Source: Candidatus Parvarchaeum sp.
Lineage (GTDB): Archaea > Nanobdellota > Nanobdellia > Parvarchaeales > Parvarchaeaceae
Assembly: GCA_049965555.1 (NCBI GenBank)
Contig: JBMFWF010000001.1
Coordinates: 1 to 64,000 of the forward strand
Length of the DNA stretch: 64,000 bases
Direction of reading: 5' to 3'
The notes under the pieces were generated by a model that was not told the DNA's origin, did not search any database, and saw only the letters and a program-made list of their open reading frames with translations. A program made the translations under genes and the position numbers. This document shows, one piece after another, positions 25,214 to 35,502 of the stretch; the stretch's first letter is position 1, and each line of letters starts with the position of its first letter.

Positions 25214-25651
25214 ATGAAAGGACAGGAATCCTTGGAGATGATAATAATATACAGTTTGGCTATAGCAGTAATAGGATCAATATTTTATATAATATTCACG
25301 TTTTTCCCGAGTTTAACAGGCGCGACAACTCAACCCAGCTACTCTGGGTTTCCAGGATTCAGAATAATACAGCAGGGTTACATCTCATCAAAATCCCTTT
25401 TCTACATAAAATTCCAGAACCTGCTGAATGAAAACGTTAAAATAGACGGTTTATCCATCTTAATTTCAGGTGTAAACTATACCAACTTTGTTTGCTCAAA
25501 AACTTATCTCCCCGCTTTGGAATACAGCGAATGCAATTTAACGTCTGTATCACTTGGCAGTTCATTCAGCGGAAACGGTTATATATATTATACTCCTACA
25601 AACATATCTTCCTCCCCGATCATAGTATCTATGGGGAACATAATCAATTAA
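25214..25651 (+). CDS. pilin-like protein (class III signal peptide)
   Basis: MKG|QESLEM plus hydrophobic helix; SGF.GF motif as in other pilins here. Confidence 0.75.
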   Translation: MKGQESLEMIIIYSLAIAVIGSIFYIIFTFFPSLTGATTQPSYSGFPGFRIIQQGYISSKSLFYIKFQNLLNENVKIDGLSILISGVNYTNFVCSKTYLPALEYSECNLTSVSLGSSFSGNGYIYYTPTNISSSPIIVSMGNIIN

Positions 25652-26220: not shown

Positions 26221-26730
26221 ATGGATGTTGAACAGTTTCTTTTCTTTGAAGTACTCATTGGCATAGTAATAGCGCTTACGATGTTTTTCCTTTTCTACAA
26301 TAATTATTCATCTATTTTTCCAGTAGGTTGCGATTCAGCGACAGCTCTCCTGCAGAACCAATTTACAAGCGCAGAATACGGCTATGCTAACAGGATGGAA
26401 GGCACCCCTTTGTTTAGATGCTATGATGAAAATGCTTGTTACAATGCAGCAACGGCTCAGCAAACGTGCATAAGGCATTGGTGTTACTATGATCTTTGGA
26501 AAAACGGGCAGGGGAGCGATTCTGCTGTACAAGCATGCATTGATAGCCCTCCTGCAAGTATAAACAAGTCATGCAGCGTTGTATCTCCTACAAATACTGC
26601 AGATTTATTCAGCTGTTCAGAGAGCACTATAGTTGCTAATAACGCCACTGACATACAGAACTGCGCAATAAATGTCACAGCATGCATATCGGGGGACGGG
26701 CCTTACTGCCCTGCATGTGTAGCTCAATGA
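26221..26730 (+). CDS. Cys-rich membrane-anchored exported protein
   Basis: N-terminal TM, 12 Cys in 169 aa. Confidence 0.75.
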   Translation: MDVEQFLFFEVLIGIVIALTMFFLFYNNYSSIFPVGCDSATALLQNQFTSAEYGYANRMEGTPLFRCYDENACYNAATAQQTCIRHWCYYDLWKNGQGSDSAVQACIDSPPASINKSCSVVSPTNTADLFSCSESTIVANNATDIQNCAINVTACISGDGPYCPACVAQ

Positions 26731-26731
26731 T

Positions 26732-26893
26732 ATGGATAAAAAAGGAAGCGTAGAATGGCGTCTTATATGGATAATGCTGGTAATAATAACCGCTATCGCG
26801 ATTATAGGGCTTATTGTAATACTTTTTTACGCAGGATCGCACAGTAGCTCTCCCTTCTCATATTTCGGAAATCTCCTGGGAGGGGGGTCATAA
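26732..26893 (+). CDS. 53-aa mini-pilin-like protein (not in ORF track)
   Basis: MDKKG|SVEWRLIWIMLVIITAIAIIGLIVILFYAGSHSSSPFSYFGNLLGGGS*; fills the gap, its TAA abuts the next ATG. Confidence 0.75.
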   Translation: MDKKGSVEWRLIWIMLVIITAIAIIGLIVILFYAGSHSSSPFSYFGNLLGGGS

Positions 26894-27784
26894 ATGGAAG
26901 AGGGCATTCTATTGACGATAGTTTTTGTTATATTTGTCATAATAGCAGGAATAATTCTTTCAGTCGTTTCCTTTTCTATAATAACCTCATTTGGCACACT
27001 AAACTTCGGATTAAGCTGCTTTACCGCATTTACCCAGTATAAGATAGTGAACAGCTTTTTAGCTCCATTTACAGGCATAACATCTTTCTTCGGCTTTTCA
27101 AATATAGTTATAAGCCCAACGCAATCTGCACAGGTGCAAAGAGACTGCTTGCAGACTGCGAATGTAAATGAAAAGAGCACTGCAAGTTTTGCATCCTCGT
27201 TTTATACAGAAGCGTCGTCATGCTTTAGTTTATTTTCCGGAGGAAATGCAGTAATAGGTTCGCAGATTCTTTCTGCTAAAAACATAAACCAGATATTCAA
27301 CTGTTACAAAGGATCATTGATTAGTCAAAGCAATGACGTAAATTATTCAGCAATAATAAGTTATATTGACAGCAATTATAACGGGAGCTATCCACTGCAG
27401 ATAGTTTTCATAACGAATGGAAGCAATGGCAATGCAACATACATAACTCCATCTGACAAGCTTTCAAATTCAAGCTATACAGTAACTTACTTTGGCTATC
27501 CTTCTGGAGGGATCAAAAACTGCCAGGTGAGCTTCAAAGACCAGTGTGAGTACACAGCCAGATTCCAGCAGCCAATAATAAACGACCTATCGGTATGCGC
27601 TTATTCGAATGAGACTACGAATCAAAGCAGGGAGACAGTAAGCTCTCTTAGCGACGGCAACCCCTCTCTAAATATAATAAATGAGAATAGTGGCTGTGAT
27701 TACTATGTGCCTTTATGTGGAAAGCTCAGCAACTATATGGTGTATAGTCAAAGCAGGGTATTTGTATGCATACCCGGCCAATGA
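26894..27784 (+). CDS. Cys-rich membrane-anchored exported protein
   Basis: N-terminal hydrophobic helix, 10 Cys, NxS/T sequons. Confidence 0.75.
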   Translation: MEEGILLTIVFVIFVIIAGIILSVVSFSIITSFGTLNFGLSCFTAFTQYKIVNSFLAPFTGITSFFGFSNIVISPTQSAQVQRDCLQTANVNEKSTASFASSFYTEASSCFSLFSGGNAVIGSQILSAKNINQIFNCYKGSLISQSNDVNYSAIISYIDSNYNGSYPLQIVFITNGSNGNATYITPSDKLSNSSYTVTYFGYPSGGIKNCQVSFKDQCEYTARFQQPIINDLSVCAYSNETTNQSRETVSSLSDGNPSLNIINENSGCDYYVPLCGKLSNYMVYSQSRVFVCIPGQ

Positions 27785-27843
27785 TATTTTGCCTCAAATA
27801 TGAATTGGATATTAATTTATTGCATAAAAACACTACTTAATTA

Positions 27844-29319
27844 ATGGCAGAGACACCGGGAGAGAGCTTCATATTCATAGTTTTGGCGGTGATATTTATA
27901 ATAGTTATAGTAGCGATTGCCGGCTATCTTTTATTGGTTGGAGTAAACTTATCAAACAGCAGCATCTGCTACGTAAGCTCTGAATTCACCAACTTTTACT
28001 ATAATGGTCTGTGTGTATCGAATTTCTTTTGCCTTAGCAGCACTCTTAAAGCCATAGGGATAGGGCCACCACTTTTCGGCTGCACGACATCAACAGCGGG
28101 ATACGGCCCGGGCTCGAAACCATCTCAGGTATTTTCAACAGTAGCAACTGACCTGACAAGCTGCTGGAACCAATATGGTGCAAACCAAGGACTTACGGTT
28201 TTAACTAATTCGCCAGCAATCTGCTCCGTAGTAGATGTAAATATAAACCAGAACATAACGATAAATAACCTTACCAATTACCTTGGAAAAAACGCGTATA
28301 CGACGGAGGTTAGCTGTCTTAACCACACGCCTGTTCAATCCTGCTCTGATCCCTTGACAAGCTCTAATCCTAATGGATACTCATGTGATTTAAATGATCC
28401 TAGTTTGTGTGTTTCCCAATCATCTAATTATTTCAATTGCAAAAGTCAATCCGGTTACAACCCCTTTACACAAGGTTACACAACAAAATACATACCTTTA
28501 AATGGATCAAAACCGCCAACTGCTGCGATGAACCTTTCAGGTTATCTCTGCGAAGAATCCCAGGGCTGTTCTTTTAACACGACACTAGGAACTTGTTCGA
28601 CTCCGAATGGAACTACTTCTTCATGCACAGATTTGTACACTAACTTCTGCAATGGCAATAACTGCACTGTTGGCTATGATTCTATAACAGATTCTTATGA
28701 AGCTCCTTCTTCCTGTGTATTGACAGAACCAGTGAAAAGCACTTCAATAATAAATGAATCATATGCAGATTACTTAAAACCAGGAGATAATTTAATATTC
28801 AGCTATAAAAATGTTAGTAACCCGAGCCAAAGCGGGTTTGTGCCTCCAAACAGCAGCAGATCAATAAACAAAGCGCAGATATATATAGTTTACCTAAATT
28901 CTTTGGTAGGGACAAGGTTTCCCCCAAGCTCAATAAGCTTGCCGAGCGAATGCGAGCCGGCAACATTCCTTAACAATTATCCAACAGCTGGAATAGAATA
29001 TGAATGCTCAAGAGCAATTGCATCAGGAGTAGGTGCAAAGGTTCTTTCGCCTTCAAACCCTGGACTAATAGCTGGAGCTGCACTTGCGGGATTTGGAGCT
29101 TCGGAATGTTTTAATAACACAATATGCAAAGATGACATCGCACCGAATGTGCTTACTTACACAGGAAAACTTGCTTATTCGGCCTTGTATGCTACTGGAT
29201 TGGAGCAATGTGCACAGTCTTTGTTCTACTTCTTTGCTTCCTTGCCGCAAGAAATAGGCATATCAAAGCCAAACTTTTTAGGGAGGAATTTAATTTACAT
29301 ATGCGCAGTAACGAAGTAA
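27844..29319 (+). CDS. Cys-rich membrane-anchored exported protein
   Basis: N-terminal hydrophobic helix, 24 Cys in 491 aa. Confidence 0.78.
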   Translation: MAETPGESFIFIVLAVIFIIVIVAIAGYLLLVGVNLSNSSICYVSSEFTNFYYNGLCVSNFFCLSSTLKAIGIGPPLFGCTTSTAGYGPGSKPSQVFSTVATDLTSCWNQYGANQGLTVLTNSPAICSVVDVNINQNITINNLTNYLGKNAYTTEVSCLNHTPVQSCSDPLTSSNPNGYSCDLNDPSLCVSQSSNYFNCKSQSGYNPFTQGYTTKYIPLNGSKPPTAAMNLSGYLCEESQGCSFNTTLGTCSTPNGTTSSCTDLYTNFCNGNNCTVGYDSITDSYEAPSSCVLTEPVKSTSIINESYADYLKPGDNLIFSYKNVSNPSQSGFVPPNSSRSINKAQIYIVYLNSLVGTRFPPSSISLPSECEPATFLNNYPTAGIEYECSRAIASGVGAKVLSPSNPGLIAGAALAGFGASECFNNTICKDDIAPNVLTYTGKLAYSALYATGLEQCAQSLFYFFASLPQEIGISKPNFLGRNLIYICAVTK

Positions 29320-29768
29320 AGGGCGCAAGTGCAGTGGAGTATTTCATAGTTGTTATACTTCTTATTGCATTTTTAGTCATAGGGGTTGTGATAGCCAGTT
29401 CAGTCTTCCATTTTGCTATATTCCCATCAGGTGTAATAACAAGCGGAAGCGGCTCTCCTGTAGCATGCTCCGTAAATGTTACTAACATAAGCACTCCGTC
29501 AAAACAGAACACATTCAAGATAACAGTATCGGAAGGCAGCCCTGGATTAATTTACAAAGTTTTCGCAAGCAATACTGCTAAAAGTGCATCCCTTTCAATA
29601 ATAGGAAATTACACTGCGGGGATAAGCTCCTTTTCGACAGATTTAACCATTGCAAACCCTAGCATAAACACAGTTATCATAGGTAACACATCAGGCAGCA
29701 ATGTTTCAATAGATGGTATCAAGTACTCTCCGGGCGGAACGTGTGAAACTGAGATATTCGGCAGTTAG
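29301..29768 (+). CDS. pilin-like protein (class III signal peptide)
   Basis: MRSNEVKG|ASAVEY plus hydrophobic helix; start moved from 29208. Confidence 0.75.
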   Translation: MRSNEVKGASAVEYFIVVILLIAFLVIGVVIASSVFHFAIFPSGVITSGSGSPVACSVNVTNISTPSKQNTFKITVSEGSPGLIYKVFASNTAKSASLSIIGNYTAGISSFSTDLTIANPSINTVIIGNTSGSNVSIDGIKYSPGGTCETEIFGS

Positions 29769-31291
29769 ATGAAAGGATGGAGTGTGCCATCCTGCTTTAT
29801 TGTATCCGGGTTATCTTTTATGTTTTTTATTATCTTCTTCATGCTCTTCTCCCTTCTTTTTGAAAGCCAATAGTAGCCCTCGTCATTTGTCCCTCTTGTA
29901 ATAAGTATGAATATCCTGCCTGCAGAGAACCTGCCGACTCTGCCTCTGCGCTGTATGTTTCTTATTGCACTAGGTATGGTCTCATAAAATACCGCAAGAT
30001 CAACCCCTTTTATGGACATTCCCTCTTCGCTGACACTTGTTGAAACAAGCACATTGTACATGCCTGATTCAAAATCTCGTATTATGTTCACTTGCTCCTT
30101 CTGTGATAAACCTCCCTTTCCCTGGCCGATGAACCTTATAGGCCTTACCCCCGGTATCTTTGATATGCTGTTGTATATGACATCTACAGTGTCCCTGTAT
30201 TGTGCAAACACTATCGCCTTTTTTGACTCATTAAAGTTGTTTGTAAATATAATTTGAAGCTGCTTGAGCTTTGGATGCTCAATCCCTTTCTCCAATAATT
30301 CTACAGTTCTTTCCTTTATTTCAATGAACTTCTTGTTTGAAGAAAGGTCCTTATCTGTCTTTGCTTTCCCATTTTTTATTTTCTCCAAAAAATTTGAAAA
30401 CGCTAAAAGGCTCTGTGTCGACAAAAGATTGTAAGCGTGATATAGCTTCAAAATCTTTGAAGTCAGGATTATCCCTCTGATAAGATAATACGTCCTTTTT
30501 CCGCTGAACATCTGCTTTTGAAGGCTCTTCTGAAGCATAAGGATGGTTACTTTGTTTATCCTTGCTTTCTGGACGTTTTTAAGAAGGCCGATTTCCTGCA
30601 GCTCATTTATTGATTCGCTTATGAGCAGCTTTAGGCTGTTGGCAAGTTCAAGCATCTCCTGTGGAAGATCAACCTTTATCTCTTCTATGTATTTTTTCTG
30701 TATGTACGGTACGACGTCAGGATCGTCCTCTGATCTTATTTCAACATTGCTTATCTGCAGATTGCTGCATATTGTCTTTATCTTTTCCCTTTCGGACGCA
30801 GGAGAAGCTGTAAGCCCAAGGATTAGAGGATGAAAAGACTGCTCTGAGTATGTTTTTGCTATCTTGACATATGAGTAATTACCGATTGTATGATGCGCCT
30901 CATCTACTATAAGCAGGCTAAAATTCGAGAAGTCTATGATATTTTTGGACATGTCATTCTCTATTGTCTGAGGGGTAGCAAATATGAGCTGGGATTCCTC
31001 ATAGATTTTGCTCCTTTTGCTGCTTGATATGGAGCCGCTGGCTATGCCTTGACTTACTGCAAGCAATGAAGAAAATGTCTTATAATGCTGGTTTGCAAGA
31101 GGCTTTGTGGGCGCCAGGAAAAGAACCTTTGAAGAAGGATATTTCTCCAGCCTATAATCAACAAGCATCGCACTTATTATAGTTTTTCCAAGGCCTGTTG
31201 GCAGTACTACAAGGGTGTTGCCCGTTTTTGCAGTCTCAAATATCCTGTTCTGGTATTCTCTGTTTTCTATTTTTTCCTTAAAAAGTGTCAT
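29765..31291 (-). CDS. hef: Hef/FANCM-like SF2 helicase without nuclease domain
   Basis: REYQ, LPTGLGKT, DEAH, TASP, HPKL, QRRGRVGR; ends at 508 aa. Confidence 0.9.
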   Translation of the reverse strand: MTLFKEKIENREYQNRIFETAKTGNTLVVLPTGLGKTIISAMLVDYRLEKYPSSKVLFLAPTKPLANQHYKTFSSLLAVSQGIASGSISSSKRSKIYEESQLIFATPQTIENDMSKNIIDFSNFSLLIVDEAHHTIGNYSYVKIAKTYSEQSFHPLILGLTASPASEREKIKTICSNLQISNVEIRSEDDPDVVPYIQKKYIEEIKVDLPQEMLELANSLKLLISESINELQEIGLLKNVQKARINKVTILMLQKSLQKQMFSGKRTYYLIRGIILTSKILKLYHAYNLLSTQSLLAFSNFLEKIKNGKAKTDKDLSSNKKFIEIKERTVELLEKGIEHPKLKQLQIIFTNNFNESKKAIVFAQYRDTVDVIYNSISKIPGVRPIRFIGQGKGGLSQKEQVNIIRDFESGMYNVLVSTSVSEEGMSIKGVDLAVFYETIPSAIRNIQRRGRVGRFSAGRIFILITRGTNDEGYYWLSKRREKSMKKIIKNIKDNPDTIKQDGTLHPFI

Positions 31292-31867
31292 TTACACACT
31301 CTCAGCTTTTCCGCTCTTTATAAGTATCTGCGCTACATCTTTGTCTATTTCAATTACATTTGGAAAACTGAAAGGCCCGTAAGATTTGTCGTTTCTCCAA
31401 ACGAATTTTGGTATGTCTGACAATATCTTTATGACTACCTTCTCGCTTTCGCTATCGTTGCTCTCCACTTTCTGCAGCTTCTTTGGCTCTATTGACTTTA
31501 CTTCAGTTATTACTCCTGATTTATACTGCTTGGAGAGATTAAGAAGGTTGTCAAAAAATATTATCTCCTTGGAAAGCATGTTCGCCTTTGCCTGCTCGCT
31601 GTCGGCATCAAGTATGGCCATTGATGCGATTTTAAGCATCCTCAGGTTTATTATCTGCTCCAGCGTTGAGATTGCGTTCTTTATCTGTGTTGATATCTCC
31701 TCCAACTTCTTTTCATCATTCATTTTCTTTGCCTCTTCTAATGAGTTTTTGTTTATGGCTATGTATTCCTTCATCTCTTCAAGGAGCTCATCATTGAACT
31801 TTGTCAGAGTCCGATTATCTTCCTGCTCCTGCCTCCTTATTCTTAAAAATTCACTGTAAGTAATCAT
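31292..31867 (-). CDS. gins: DNA replication GINS subunit (Gins15-type)
   Basis: Helical A domain (R..KI), C-terminal B domain IPKFV...YGPF...A.ILI..G.AE. Confidence 0.8.
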   Translation of the reverse strand: MITYSEFLRIRRQEQEDNRTLTKFNDELLEEMKEYIAINKNSLEEAKKMNDEKKLEEISTQIKNAISTLEQIINLRMLKIASMAILDADSEQAKANMLSKEIIFFDNLLNLSKQYKSGVITEVKSIEPKKLQKVESNDSESEKVVIKILSDIPKFVWRNDKSYGPFSFPNVIEIDKDVAQILIKSGKAESV

Positions 31868-31899: not shown

Positions 31900-32061
31900 T
31901 TAATATGCATTCTTAAAGCCTGCCATTATTGAAGAGCTTATTCCAGAAAAAAACCCGGAAATATCTTTAGACAGCGCAGACGGGCCTACTAAAAACAAAT
32001 AGACTAAAAGGAGCGTTATTCCCAAGATGACGGCTATGACATAAAACCAGACGGATTCCAT
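31900..32061 (-). CDS. 53-aa single-TM mini-pilin-like protein (array gene 4)
   Basis: MESVWFYVIAVILGITLLLVYLFLVGPSALSKDISGFFSGISSSIMAGFKNAY*; starts 1 nt after upstream stop; no KG leader. Confidence 0.65.
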   Translation of the reverse strand: MESVWFYVIAVILGITLLLVYLFLVGPSALSKDISGFFSGISSSIMAGFKNAY

Positions 32062-32062
32062 G

Positions 32063-32203
32063 CTATATGTTTGGAACTGTCGGTATGAGTTTATGTATTG
32101 TGGCTGGCGAGAACAAGAAGAGGTAGAACACTATCAATAGTATGAGAACTATCAGCGTTATTATTATAAGCAGTATATAGCTTTCTACCCCTTTATTATT
32201 CAT
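32063..32203 (-). CDS. 46-aa mini-pilin-like protein (array gene 3)
   Basis: MNNKG|VESYILLIIITLIVLILLIVFYLFLFSPATIHKLIPTVPNI*. Confidence 0.75.
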   Translation of the reverse strand: MNNKGVESYILLIIITLIVLILLIVFYLFLFSPATIHKLIPTVPNI

Positions 32204-32366
32204 AACCGCTCACATTTAGACTATTTGACTTCGATATAAATACTTTAAAGAGATTCGTAAATTTGTACGGCGTAAAAAGCTCTAAAAATATAACTATAAG
32301 CAGTATCCCGATTATTATCAAAATTATGTACAGAAAAACCCCGCTTACAACACCTTTGTCATTCAT
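32196..32366 (-). CDS. 56-aa mini-pilin-like protein (array gene 2)
   Basis: MNDKG|VVSGVFLYIILIIIGILLIVIFLELFTPYKFTNLFKVFISKSNSLNVSGYE*; ATGA overlap. Confidence 0.75.
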   Translation of the reverse strand: MNDKGVVSGVFLYIILIIIGILLIVIFLELFTPYKFTNLFKVFISKSNSLNVSGYE

Positions 32367-32536
32367 ATGCCCTTGCCGTAAAGCCAGCTAAATGAGAAAA
32401 CGCTCGTCATATCCTTTGCGATCGTTGAACCGGCTCCTGTAAATATTAAACCTATTATTATACCTGCAAACAAAACTATAATTGCCAGTATTATAGCAAT
32501 TATCTCGGTTATAGGCATCTGTCCTTTGTTGTTCAT
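32363..32536 (-). CDS. 57-aa mini-pilin-like protein (array gene 1)
   Basis: MNNKG|QMPITEIIAIILAIIVLFAGIIIGLIFTGAGSTIAKDMTSVFSFSWLYGKGI*; 2 nt after stop of the 575-aa gene. Confidence 0.78.
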   Translation of the reverse strand: MNNKGQMPITEIIAIILAIIVLFAGIIIGLIFTGAGSTIAKDMTSVFSFSWLYGKGI

Positions 32537-32538
32537 AA

Positions 32539-34266
32539 TCAATTCACCGAAAAAGGAGGCTTCCAGTTCAAAAGGCCAACTCTCTTCTTTAACTCATCAT
32601 ATATATATGCGGCATCTTTATCGGCAATAAACAAACCAAGCTCAAGTGCTCTTTTAATATCGGATTGTGTAAAACGCTTTGAATTGACAAGCATTTCATA
32701 TATCTCTGCCTGCTCTGCAGAAAAACTTGCCTTGTGTTTTTCGGCAGAGGATATTGTAGAAAATGACTTTGAAATGCCTGAAAAGTCGTCCTTAAATGCC
32801 CTATAAATGTCCATAAAAGCGTATTCCTTCTGAGGCTTCTTCTCTTTTTTCTTCTTTTCTTCTTCATCAGCTTCCTTAACGTATTTGTCAATATCGGCCT
32901 GTATAACGCTGAGAGAACGAAAAATTGCCTGATCGACGGCCGCAAACACAGTTTTCTGTATATTTGCGATGTGCGCCTTCTTATAAAGGTAGTACTCTTC
33001 TGGTGTAAAGCAGTATGGAAACATGTTGAAGTATATCGTTCCTTCATAAGGAGGCTGAAGAGCTTCCTTGCTTGGCTTTTCCTTAAAGTCCATCTTCAAT
33101 TTTATTGCCATTATTACAAGCGGCCCGTATTTTTTTATCCTGTCATAAATGAATGATCTTTTATTCTCTTCATATCCTCTTGAAATTAGGTTGCTGGCTA
33201 TGCTTTTAGGCTCTGCCTTTATTGGTATTTCTGGGCCCTTGTTTTTAAACAGCCTAACGTACTCTGCATCGTACTCTTTTGCATATATCGGCTTGCTTCC
33301 GACAGCAGTTACAGAAAAACTTTCATTCTCGAATATATCTGGCTTGCTTGCGCCCTCTACGTATCTTTCTGCATTTTTAGATGTTTTAAAGCCCATCTTC
33401 GCAAGGAGCGAAAGATAAGTTGAGCACCAATCGACATATAAGTTGAATGAGCCCATCTGGCTCTTAAGATATTGCAGAAGCATGCTTTTCCTGTTTCTAA
33501 GGTCATTACCATTTATTTCTTTCCATTTTTCATACTCAATGTACCTATTTTTCAGTATATTTTTATACTGCTCATTTCTATCGATATTCTGCACATCTTT
33601 CAAACTTTTAACCTGGTAAAAAACCGACATTATATCTATAAATCCTGGCCCCCCCTGACTTTGAGTTGGAGACCTGGAAAGCGCAGAAAGACTTGCTCCG
33701 CCCTTTCTTGAATCAACATTGTCCAAAAACACCCTTTTTAATGCGAGTTCCGCTGCCTCTGCTTTTTCTTTGTCCGTATCCTTTAATTCATCATATAAGT
33801 ATAGGTTCCTTTCAAGCTCCTTAAGTTCGTAGATTATAGCTATAATAGATTTAAGAACAGTGTTTATATTCCCAAGAAGCTGCATTACTCTGTCTTCCAA
33901 GTTCTTCCTTTTCTCAAAAACCATGTTCATTAAACTAGACAAGGAAGAAGGATCAACCGATTCTGCAGTTCTTATGGATCTATAACCCAATGCTCCAAAC
34001 ATCTGCATAACAGAGTAGTACTCAGGCTGAAAATGGTATCTTTTGTATATATCCTTTGTGAACTTATAGCCTTCCGGGTTGCCAACAAACCCTGGGTTTG
34101 GTATTTCTTCCCCGGAGGCGTACCTGAAATCAATCTCGCCCCTGTAGTGAGAATCGCTGCTGGAAGCCCTTGCTTCTAATTCGCTTATCCATTTTTGTAT
34201 GTAGTTAACATCTGTTTTTGGGTCATTGAACTTCTTTGCTATCTCGCTTATCTCCCGTATGTTCAT
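32539..34266 (-). CDS. large uncharacterised soluble protein (575 aa)
   Basis: Long ORF, helical/coiled-coil character, no signal peptide or Walker A seen. Confidence 0.8.
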   Translation of the reverse strand: MNIREISEIAKKFNDPKTDVNYIQKWISELEARASSSDSHYRGEIDFRYASGEEIPNPGFVGNPEGYKFTKDIYKRYHFQPEYYSVMQMFGALGYRSIRTAESVDPSSLSSLMNMVFEKRKNLEDRVMQLLGNINTVLKSIIAIIYELKELERNLYLYDELKDTDKEKAEAAELALKRVFLDNVDSRKGGASLSALSRSPTQSQGGPGFIDIMSVFYQVKSLKDVQNIDRNEQYKNILKNRYIEYEKWKEINGNDLRNRKSMLLQYLKSQMGSFNLYVDWCSTYLSLLAKMGFKTSKNAERYVEGASKPDIFENESFSVTAVGSKPIYAKEYDAEYVRLFKNKGPEIPIKAEPKSIASNLISRGYEENKRSFIYDRIKKYGPLVIMAIKLKMDFKEKPSKEALQPPYEGTIYFNMFPYCFTPEEYYLYKKAHIANIQKTVFAAVDQAIFRSLSVIQADIDKYVKEADEEEKKKKEKKPQKEYAFMDIYRAFKDDFSGISKSFSTISSAEKHKASFSAEQAEIYEMLVNSKRFTQSDIKRALELGLFIADKDAAYIYDELKKRVGLLNWKPPFSVN

Positions 34267-34416: not shown

Positions 34417-35502
34417 ATGCATCAAACAGAGAACATAAATCCGATAGAAGCGACTTTAAACAAGCTTTTTTCGACAATAGACGCACTGTCGTCAAAAATA
34501 GATGAACTTAATGAAAGAGTAGATTATATGGGCTCGTTTATAGGTCTAGAAATTGGGGAAGGTGAAAACGCTGAATCAGTTGAACCGCCAGGACAGCTTG
34601 CGGGCTTATCATTTGACATATTAAATAAGGTTCTCCCATCTAAGGATGCAAACTCAATAAGAGCGTATTTCCTAAGGGTTTTAAGCCTTTTCAGAAGATA
34701 TATAAAATCGATAGTTATATTCGGCAGCTCGAAGACAAAGACTGGCATGACAAGCACTTCTGATATAGACGTCGCATTCATAGTTGATGATACAGACATA
34801 CAAAAATTCACTCTTGAACAACTTAGGGATAGGTTGTTCGCGAAAATGGCCGAGATAGCAAGGGATTTCTCTGACAAAATACATGCACAGGCATACCCTC
34901 TTTCTGAATTCTGGGGTTCAATAATAAAGCCTAATCCTGTCATACTTACTTTGTTAAGAGACGGTGTAGCAGTCTACGATACCGGTTTCTTTGTCCCTAT
35001 ACAGATGCTTTACAAAACTGGAAATATAATACCGACAGTAGAGTCTATAAACGCAAATGTGGAAAATGCAGAGGGCCTTATAATGCTTGCTGAAAATGTA
35101 TTGACTACGAAACTGAGTTTGGACCTATACAATTCAGTGGTTGCAGCTGGCCAGGCCCTATTGATGGAATATGGATATCTGCCGCCAGTACCAAAACAGG
35201 TTGCTAAAGAATTAGAGGACATAGCTGTAGCAAAGGAAAAAGTGCTTACACATGAGGATGTAGAAAAGGTGGATGAGATAGTGAAATGGTTTAAGAGGAT
35301 AGATCATGGGGAAGTCAAAGAAATAACTGGTGAGGAGTTCGACAAAAAGCTAAAAGACAGCAAGTACATTGTAGAAAAGATAACTTCTATAATAGAAAAA
35401 CTAAGGGAGAAGAAAGGAGAAGCGAAACCTATAATAGACAAAGATTTATTAAAGCAAACTGACAAAGAAATAAAGGATAAATACCTGCAAAAGGAGGAAT
35501 GA
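34417..35502 (+). CDS. nucleotidyltransferase (MNT) + HEPN-like fusion protein
   Basis: IVIFGS...SDIDV motif followed by helical region LYNSVVAAGQALL. Confidence 0.75.
   Translation: MHQTENINPIEATLNKLFSTIDALSSKIDELNERVDYMGSFIGLEIGEGENAESVEPPGQLAGLSFDILNKVLPSKDANSIRAYFLRVLSLFRRYIKSIVIFGSSKTKTGMTSTSDIDVAFIVDDTDIQKFTLEQLRDRLFAKMAEIARDFSDKIHAQAYPLSEFWGSIIKPNPVILTLLRDGVAVYDTGFFVPIQMLYKTGNIIPTVESINANVENAEGLIMLAENVLTTKLSLDLYNSVVAAGQALLMEYGYLPPVPKQVAKELEDIAVAKEKVLTHEDVEKVDEIVKWFKRIDHGEVKEITGEEFDKKLKDSKYIVEKITSIIEKLREKKGEAKPIIDKDLLKQTDKEIKDKYLQKEE

Follow-up and report, generated by a model that had tools for sequence, protein, structure and literature searches.

Four conserved small genes of Candidatus Parvarchaeum as putative mini type IV pilin genes, and how they may have come to follow a 575-aa gene

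Introduction

What do four tiny open reading frames (ORFs) in an apparently empty spacer encode, and do they belong with the large gene that they follow? The question is raised by a 64-kb stretch of DNA, hereafter the window, from the ultra-small acid-mine archaeon Candidatus Parvarchaeum sp. (positions 1 to 64,000 of contig JBMFWF010000001.1, assembly GCA_049965555.1, which comprises 783,591 bases in 28 contigs), in which a gene for a 575-aa protein is followed by the small ORFs sORF1 to sORF4, this five-gene block lying on the minus strand. A first-pass annotation of the window alone had read the block as an operon for a minimal pilus, with the 575-aa protein as its scaffold or assembly factor. 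We find the four small ORFs to be genuine genes, kept by strong purifying selection, and we give a probability of roughly 0.55 to the reading that they are four paralogous mini type IV pilin-like genes, to which the 575-aa protein is a neighbour through an inversion. Coordinates are those of the window unless a contig is named.

Results

The four small ORFs are conserved genes

Re-reading the window bore out exactly the layout first described, with ORFs of 57, 56, 46 and 53 aa and junctions consisting of a 2-nt gap between the 575-aa gene and sORF1, an ATGA overlap between sORF1 and sORF2, an 8-nt overlap between sORF2 and sORF3, and a 1-nt gap between sORF3 and sORF4 (Table 1). An alternative start of sORF1 at an upstream TTG (32542) would give 59 aa. 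Among related genomes, sORF1–4 lie in the same order behind a homologue of the 575-aa gene in 24 of 24 untruncated loci of the same genus; a 25th locus (L023) ends at a contig edge and was left out, and in two loci (L020 and L024), where sORF1 and the stop of the large gene overlap, direct translation was used to find it. All four were also present in the six loci of deeper family members, which brings the total to 30 of 30 untruncated family loci. Conservation in relatives had been set by the first-pass annotation as one test of its reading, and on this test the small ORFs held up, their order being the same throughout.

The median ratio of nonsynonymous to synonymous substitution rates (dN/dS; Nei-Gojobori method, pairs with a proportion of synonymous differences of 0.15–0.6, dS about 0.9) was 0.042 for sORF1 (37 pairs), 0.074 for sORF2 (22), 0.099 for sORF3 (37) and 0.113 for sORF4 (27). 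A sORF1 profile matched over its full length (E ≤ 3.5e-17) in each of the 27 family genomes sampled and also in the window's own genome (G000), and relatives of sORF1 formed 44 clusters in a public protein collection. The exact sequences of all four ORFs were already in that collection, their relatives (one of them in the archaeal Richmond Mine acidophilic nanoorganism ARMAN-5) being labelled 'hypothetical protein', so that the earlier description of the ORFs as hidden did not stand. Because presence and order are kept in every untruncated family locus and dN/dS is low, these results demonstrated that the four sORFs are real genes, far beyond chance, under strong purifying selection.

The small proteins carry pilin-like leaders

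All four proteins follow one plan, in which a short polar N-terminus leads into a single hydrophobic helix, and this into a tail of 15–28 residues with conserved motifs. As first annotated, the window's sORF1–3 begin with MN(N/D)KG followed by a hydrophobic stretch, which agrees with a class III signal (a leader ending in [KR]-[GA], then about 20 hydrophobic residues), and the window's sORF4 has the helix without this leader. Across the family, [KR][GA] was found right before the helix in 30 of 30 loci for sORF1, 23 of 30 for sORF2, 29 of 30 for sORF3 and 10 of 30 for sORF4. The 10 loci with a [KR][GA] leader on sORF4, for example LNKKG(I/V)TE, are all of deeper-branching lineages, in which 21 of 24 peptides carry the motif, the exceptions being sORF4 of L052, L054 and L056. 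Since leader-bearing sORF4 is confined to these lineages, the leaderless sORF4 of the window clade is, judged from its distribution, a derived state. Glutamine stands at +1 of sORF1 in 21 of 26 loci, and an N-X-S/T sequon was present in 18 of 28 sORF2 tails.

Profile comparison with hhalign supported the paralogy of sORF1 and sORF4 (probability 95.4%, 43 columns) and aligned the sORF1 profile with the signal and helix at the N-terminus of a 155-aa pilin-like protein encoded nearby (83.6%, 29 columns), both scores involving hydrophobic segments and so possibly inflated by composition. In the 155-aa protein, KG is followed by [AT]S[AG][VI]E(+5)Y, and the +5 residue was acidic in 18 of 18 aligned rows (E, with D in 2). 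The sORF leaders also match those of longer pilin-like ORFs with [KR][GA] leaders in the same genome, and leaders of K-G-Q type were found on larger ORFs of G000, including a 1397-aa ORF adjoining the prepilin peptidase gene.

That peptidase gene, the one Peptidase_A24 of G000 (gene at C8:6715-7548; match at C8:7177-7518, 55.1 bits), lies outside the window, as do two T2SSE ATPase genes (contigs C3 and C6), each with a T2SSF platform gene alongside; the genome thus encodes a class III peptidase, an assembly ATPase and a platform protein. Within the window, no such Pfam family was found among the 69 ORFs scanned, in line with the first-pass annotation. The peptidase gene is flanked (C8:2318-11133) by the 1397-aa ORF, whose leader reads KKGQ, and by three ORFs of 295–330 aa with N(K)KG leaders, and a further mini-ORF of 63 aa with an internal NNKG was observed at C2:42965-43156 on the minus strand, about 900 nt from a 147-aa pilin-like gene.

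Outside the family, the sORF1 profile gave only weak, N-terminal matches (best E 1.4e-6), which may reflect hydrophobic composition. The loci behind these matches hold ORFs of 49–71 aa with similar leaders beside pilin-like genes of 120–250 aa that contain cysteines; a T2SSE ATPase gene of 769–814 aa lies 5.5–11 kb from the mini-ORF cluster in four of five out-of-family genomes, and a 51-aa ORF of G036 has a C-terminal motif like the sORF1 tail. Such out-of-family clusters (L058-L065, in G122, G112, G204, G039, G036, G074 and G148) show leaders of MNKK(A/G) type and up to three mini-ORFs in a row.

Besides the compositional limits given above, several observations weigh against the pilin reading and favour instead a reading in which the peptides cross the membrane once, undergo neither cleavage nor polymerisation and serve as anchors, chaperones or stabilising subunits, either for the surface proteins, rich in cysteine, that the neighbouring cassette of larger pilin-like genes encodes or for another membrane complex; their [KR][GA] start would then be no more than the short polar cap that membrane helices usually have. 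No pilin model of Pfam or NCBIfam (Pilin_N, Flp1_like, Class_IIIsignal or similar) matched any sORF at E ≤ 1; among 12 pilin-like ORFs of this and other DPANN genomes, all Pfam pilin matches were sub-threshold (Pilin_N, 17.3 bits; Flp1_like, 19.6 bits). The peptides also have no E at +5, a residue that to our knowledge is not universal in archaea: sORF1 has its acidic residue at +6 (25 of 26), sORF3 has it at +2 or +3 and sORF4 at +3, and in sORF2 none is conserved. The leader seems dispensable in sORF4, being absent from 18 of 30 loci and of a non-[KR][GA] kind in two more, and K/R at −2 is missing from sORF2 in 7 of 30. Net charges (leader −0.3 to +0.7, tail +0.6 to +1.0) leave the topology unfixed, so that charge balance does not decide between the two readings, and the conserved tails (SF.WL.G, FTPYK) suggest specific contacts over a bare filament core.

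What stands against uncleaved membrane peptides is, first, that [KR][GA] is nearly invariant in sORF1 and sORF3 across proteins only 43–57% identical, and that it prevails in the deeper lineages, sORF4 included. Moreover, in relatives the peptides are encoded in one string with proteins bearing the canonical signal with E at +5, in G104 near a peptidase gene, and in other families, too, mini-ORFs of this kind are found with pilin-like genes and ATPases. We therefore regard the membrane-peptide explanation as the less probable of the two, though a real contender, and the pilin reading of sORF1–4 as plausible but unproven. A toxin or holin-type peptide was considered as well and was rejected in view of the fixed set of four paralogues and the strong purifying selection.

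The array adjoins pilin-like genes in other lineages

In five family genomes (G123, G104, G189 and G089 of the sister genus, and G208) the array follows pilin-like genes on the same strand, not the 575-aa gene. The order in G104, G189 and G089 is a 52-aa mini-ORF, genes of about 302 and 494 aa, a 147-aa pilin-like gene, sORF1–4 and the gene for a GINS protein, and that in G208 is 53, 328, 518 and 143 aa, then sORF1–4 and GINS; G123 has just a 502-aa gene and a 145-aa pilin-like gene before sORF1, with a nucleotidyltransferase gene next upstream. The cassette genes upstream of the array in these five are homologues of the cassette at 26221-29768 of the window. In G104, two more pilin-like genes come after GINS and a prepilin peptidase gene lies about 2.8 kb past it; against the pilin reading, the 21.5 kb read of the G104 contig contained no ATPase or platform gene. 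Homologues of the 295–330-aa ORFs beside the peptidase gene of G000 come after GINS in G104.

Read from the L35Ae side, G208 has the 575-aa gene (+) and then Hef, GINS, sORF4 to sORF1, 143, 518, 328, 53 and 166 aa, L15e and 145 aa (all −). The reverse complement of the window has the 575-aa gene, sORF1–4, GINS and Hef (all +) and then 155, 491, 296, 53 and 169 aa, L15e and 145 aa (all −). The two orders thus differ by one inversion of the segment [sORF1–4, GINS, Hef]. In both G208 and G123, Hef stands between the 575-aa gene and GINS on the strand opposite the 575-aa gene. Of the 30 untruncated family loci, 29 have a GINS51-like gene directly after the array, whatever the upstream gene; the exception is L020 (G018), where a different 91-aa ORF follows sORF4. 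The 145-aa ORF beside L15e (25214-25651, plus strand, in the window) starts MKGQESLEM, with Q at +1 and E at +5, and G208 has the same pair at the cassette's far end.

The window order was found in 26 genomes of one clade only (the 24 above, G080 and G199). In a tree of the 575-aa protein, built quickly by maximum likelihood from 32 rows (without L023 and four out-of-family loci, and rooted by three long out-of-family branches), the 24 window-order rows formed one clade with a Shimodaira–Hasegawa-like approximate likelihood ratio (SH-aLRT) support of 95, the sister genus came next (SH-aLRT 90) and G208 stood outside, so that the pilin-linked order occurs in two outer lineages. Because the window order marks one clade and the other order is that of the outer lineages, the pilin-linked order is most simply taken as ancestral, with the cassette as the array's putative ancestral upstream neighbour, and the array would most simply have come to lie behind the 575-aa gene when [sORF1–4, GINS, Hef] was inverted in the common ancestor of a single Parvarchaeum clade. 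Two points count against this account. The polarity of the inversion, taken from a quick tree of a single gene, is uncertain, as are the root and the position of G208, a genome labelled as belonging to the same genus. In addition, co-expression of the 575-aa gene and the array is likely in the window clade, since the junction between them is 2 nt or overlapping in all 26 clade genomes. A search for inverted repeats at the inversion ends (29765 and 32540) found none, and a scan for bacterial-type promoters and terminators, which is ill-suited to archaea, gave sites no commoner than in shuffled sequences.

The 575-aa protein has conserved partners of its own

Homologues of the 575-aa protein were found in 39 of 41 related genomes, among them every one of the 24 in the genus; of the 16 other families sampled, 14 have one. 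Full-length homology extends class-wide to proteins of 450–590 aa (86 proteins at E ≤ 0.001), and the family comprises 853 clusters at E ≤ 0.001, or 319 at the stricter E ≤ 1e-30. Neither Pfam nor NCBIfam has a family for the protein, nor does PADLOC, and Pfam searches with 10 distant members returned one sub-threshold match to DUF7487. A defence role was considered and rejected, the family being single-copy and near-universal in the class.

An AlphaFold2 model (mean predicted local distance difference test score 75.9) consists of a long helical hairpin and beta sheets, and neither an ATPase head nor another catalytic motif was seen in the protein. A sequence profile search of the PDB gave 0 matches at E ≤ 10, an ESM Atlas search gave nothing usable, and Foldseek with the full model or the C-terminal half gave nothing at E ≤ 0.001. 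In a wide VIA-align search, the full model matched coiled coils only (best Z 9.9): the hairpin (residues 111–161 and 232–291) aligned with the plectin plakin fragment 2odv and with SMC coiled coils at Z 9.4–9.9 and a root-mean-square deviation of 2.0–2.4 over 82–103 residues, these Z values being, according to the tool, in the common range for long helices, whereas the beta-rich part had no match, the best Z for the C-terminal half being 5.8. Profile search and structure prediction, among the checks that the first-pass annotation had proposed, thus gave a class-wide family and a model, but neither a known fold nor a function.

In five of seven out-of-family loci (L026, L027, L029, L031 and L032) the 575-like gene is followed by genes for an AP_endonuc_2-type triosephosphate isomerase (TIM)-barrel protein of 517–584 aa and an NTP_transf_2 nucleotidyltransferase, with a protein of about 200 aa encoded between the 575-like and TIM-barrel genes in three of them (L026, L031 and L032); a divergent gene for a DUF63 membrane protein lies upstream in four of the seven. 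The nucleotidyltransferase-like protein encoded in the window, divergently from the 575-aa gene, is 35% identical (E 4e-33) to the one that closes the 575-like operon in G033. The TIM-barrel homologue of G000 (574 aa) is at C2:53180-54904, with another nucleotidyltransferase-like gene (261 aa) behind it (C2:52398-54904 region), and because the TIM-barrel gene is on another contig, the operon appears split in this family. By this conserved gene order, the 575-aa protein has its own class-wide partners, namely the nucleotidyltransferase, the TIM-barrel protein and the protein of about 200 aa.

These results bear directly on the proposal that the cytoplasmic 575-aa protein serves a minimal pilus as scaffold or assembly factor and that the five genes are one functional operon. 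The tight junction, with a GGTGA Shine-Dalgarno-like motif inside the 3′ end of the 575-aa gene, and its persistence throughout the clade speak for the proposal, as does the presence of the 575-aa gene within about 2 kb of the array, on the other strand, even in G208 and G123. In G104, however, the distance is about 10 kb, and the five genomes above have the array behind pilin-like genes instead. Downstream of the 575-like gene, small helix ORFs were found in 0 of the 7 out-of-family loci, where the different conserved operon stands. If the leader is cytoplasmic, moreover, the peptides would expose only about five residues to a cytoplasmic protein. Complex prediction for the 575-aa protein with sORF1 (two alignments; score 0.00, mark 0.32, without controls) speaks neither for nor against binding. 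Because the junction is confined to one clade, where a single inversion would explain it, and the protein has conserved partners of its own, the 575-aa protein is probably not part of the array system; its role as scaffold is not supported, and we consider it very unlikely. The weakest explanation, by which a 670-bp spacer happens to contain four open frames, has only the small size of the ORFs in its favour and is already refuted by the conservation data (order and frame kept in 30 of 30 loci, dN/dS of 0.04–0.11 at the stated dS, and the public clusters of sORF1 relatives), so that its likelihood is close to nil.

Table 1. Genes of the array and its surroundings in the window.
Feature	Position	Strand	Description
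575-aa ORF	32539-34266	-	soluble, unnamed Nanoarchaeia-wide family; stop TGA at 32541-32539
sORF1, 57 aa	32363-32536	-	MNNKG leader, Q, hydrophobic helix, invariant SF.WL.G tail
sORF2, 56 aa	32196-32366	-	MNDKG leader, helix, conserved FTPYK, tail with N-X-S/T sequon
sORF3, 46 aa	32063-32203	-	MNNKG leader, helix, FSP...LIP..P tail
sORF4, 53 aa	31900-32061	-	leaderless here: ME, then helix; sORF1 paralogue
GINS51-like gene	31292-31867	-	Gins51_C, E 4.2e-9; 32 nt past sORF4
Hef-like helicase	29765-31291	-	ResIII, DEAD and Helicase_C domains; end gene of the inverted block
Pilin-like, cysteine-rich cassette	26221-29768	+	169 aa, 53-aa mini-ORF, 296 aa, 491 aa, 155 aa
53-aa mini-ORF of cassette	26732-26893	+	MDKKG start; tail resembles that of sORF1
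155-aa pilin-like gene	29301-29768	+	KG-ASAVEY
Nucleotidyltransferase-like gene	34417-35502	+	Polbeta, E 2.4e-4; divergent from 575-aa gene

Discussion

The minimal-pilus proposal can now be divided. The leaders resembling class III signals, the peptidase and motor genes elsewhere in the genome and the pilin-gene context in relatives support its pilin part, and the 575-aa scaffold finds no support. If sORF1–4 are indeed mini type IV pilin-like proteins, we infer that they would insert in the membrane with the leader on the cytoplasmic side, that the single prepilin peptidase would trim them, except for the leaderless sORF4 of this clade, and that after export they would enter the helical core or the base of a type IV filament, alongside the larger, pilin-like and cysteine-rich products of the cassette. 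The energy for assembly would come from one of the two ATPase/platform pairs, whose genes lie elsewhere in the genome.

Three known systems invite comparison. Bacterial Flp/Tad pilins are tiny, with little beyond the signal and one hydrophobic helix, and have the processing motif G-x4-EY. This motif fits the KG-ASAVEY of the 155-aa neighbour, and the 19.6-bit Flp1_like match (cut-off 33.5) came from a 60-aa mini-ORF of another DPANN genome; sORF1–4, in contrast, have neither an Flp1_like match at E ≤ 1 nor G-x4-EY, and no Tad-type genes were found in the window. The short Epd pilins of Methanococcus maripaludis (the major pilin MMP1685/EpdE, with MMP0528, MMP0903 and MMP1283) are described as 67–76 aa long and 54–63 aa when processed (74 and 62 aa before and after signal removal for MMP1685), with leaders of 5–13 residues ending in glycine, Q at +1, a conserved E at +5, and genes scattered apart from those for the ATPase and platform protein (PMC3875500). 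Compared by these descriptions, the two sets are alike as tiny proteins with class III signals, with Q at +1 also in sORF1, and they differ in that the Parvarchaeum peptides are shorter (46–57 aa, or 41–52 if cleaved), have no E at +5 and form a fixed array of four paralogues, one of them leaderless. Minor pilins, which prime type IV filaments and type II secretion pseudopili or form their tips, come third. Like sets of these, the array has several small paralogues in a constant order adjoining genes for larger subunits, and it differs in that known minor pilins have globular domains and sORF1–4 none; by this analogy, a priming role for sORF1–4 may be considered. Minor pilins and tip complexes are stated to diversify filament function, and type 4 filament systems to be less common in DPANN (PMC13705601). 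Among the titles and opening lines of abstracts that full-text literature searches returned, no paper describing these peptides turned up.

For the reading of compact genomes such as these, the locus indicates that two genes can be joined tightly, to all appearance by translational coupling, simply because an inversion brought them together, so that adjacency in an operon is weak evidence of shared function. It also draws attention to the 575-aa family, which is near-universal in its class, has no known fold and stands in a conserved operon of its own.

DPANN archaea depend on host-cell contact. On a wider and distinctly speculative view, which we hold to be rather unlikely, the peptides would be the smallest type IV pilins seen (41–52 residues when cleaved, helix only) and would form the core or the priming complex of the contacts between ARMAN and Thermoplasmatales cells, with the cassette proteins as adhesive tips, and such arrays would be general and overlooked in DPANN filament loci. 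Pili-like links between ARMAN and Thermoplasmatales cells are reported (PMC5864196). The conserved, helix-only peptides of the array offer concrete candidates for the subunits of these links.

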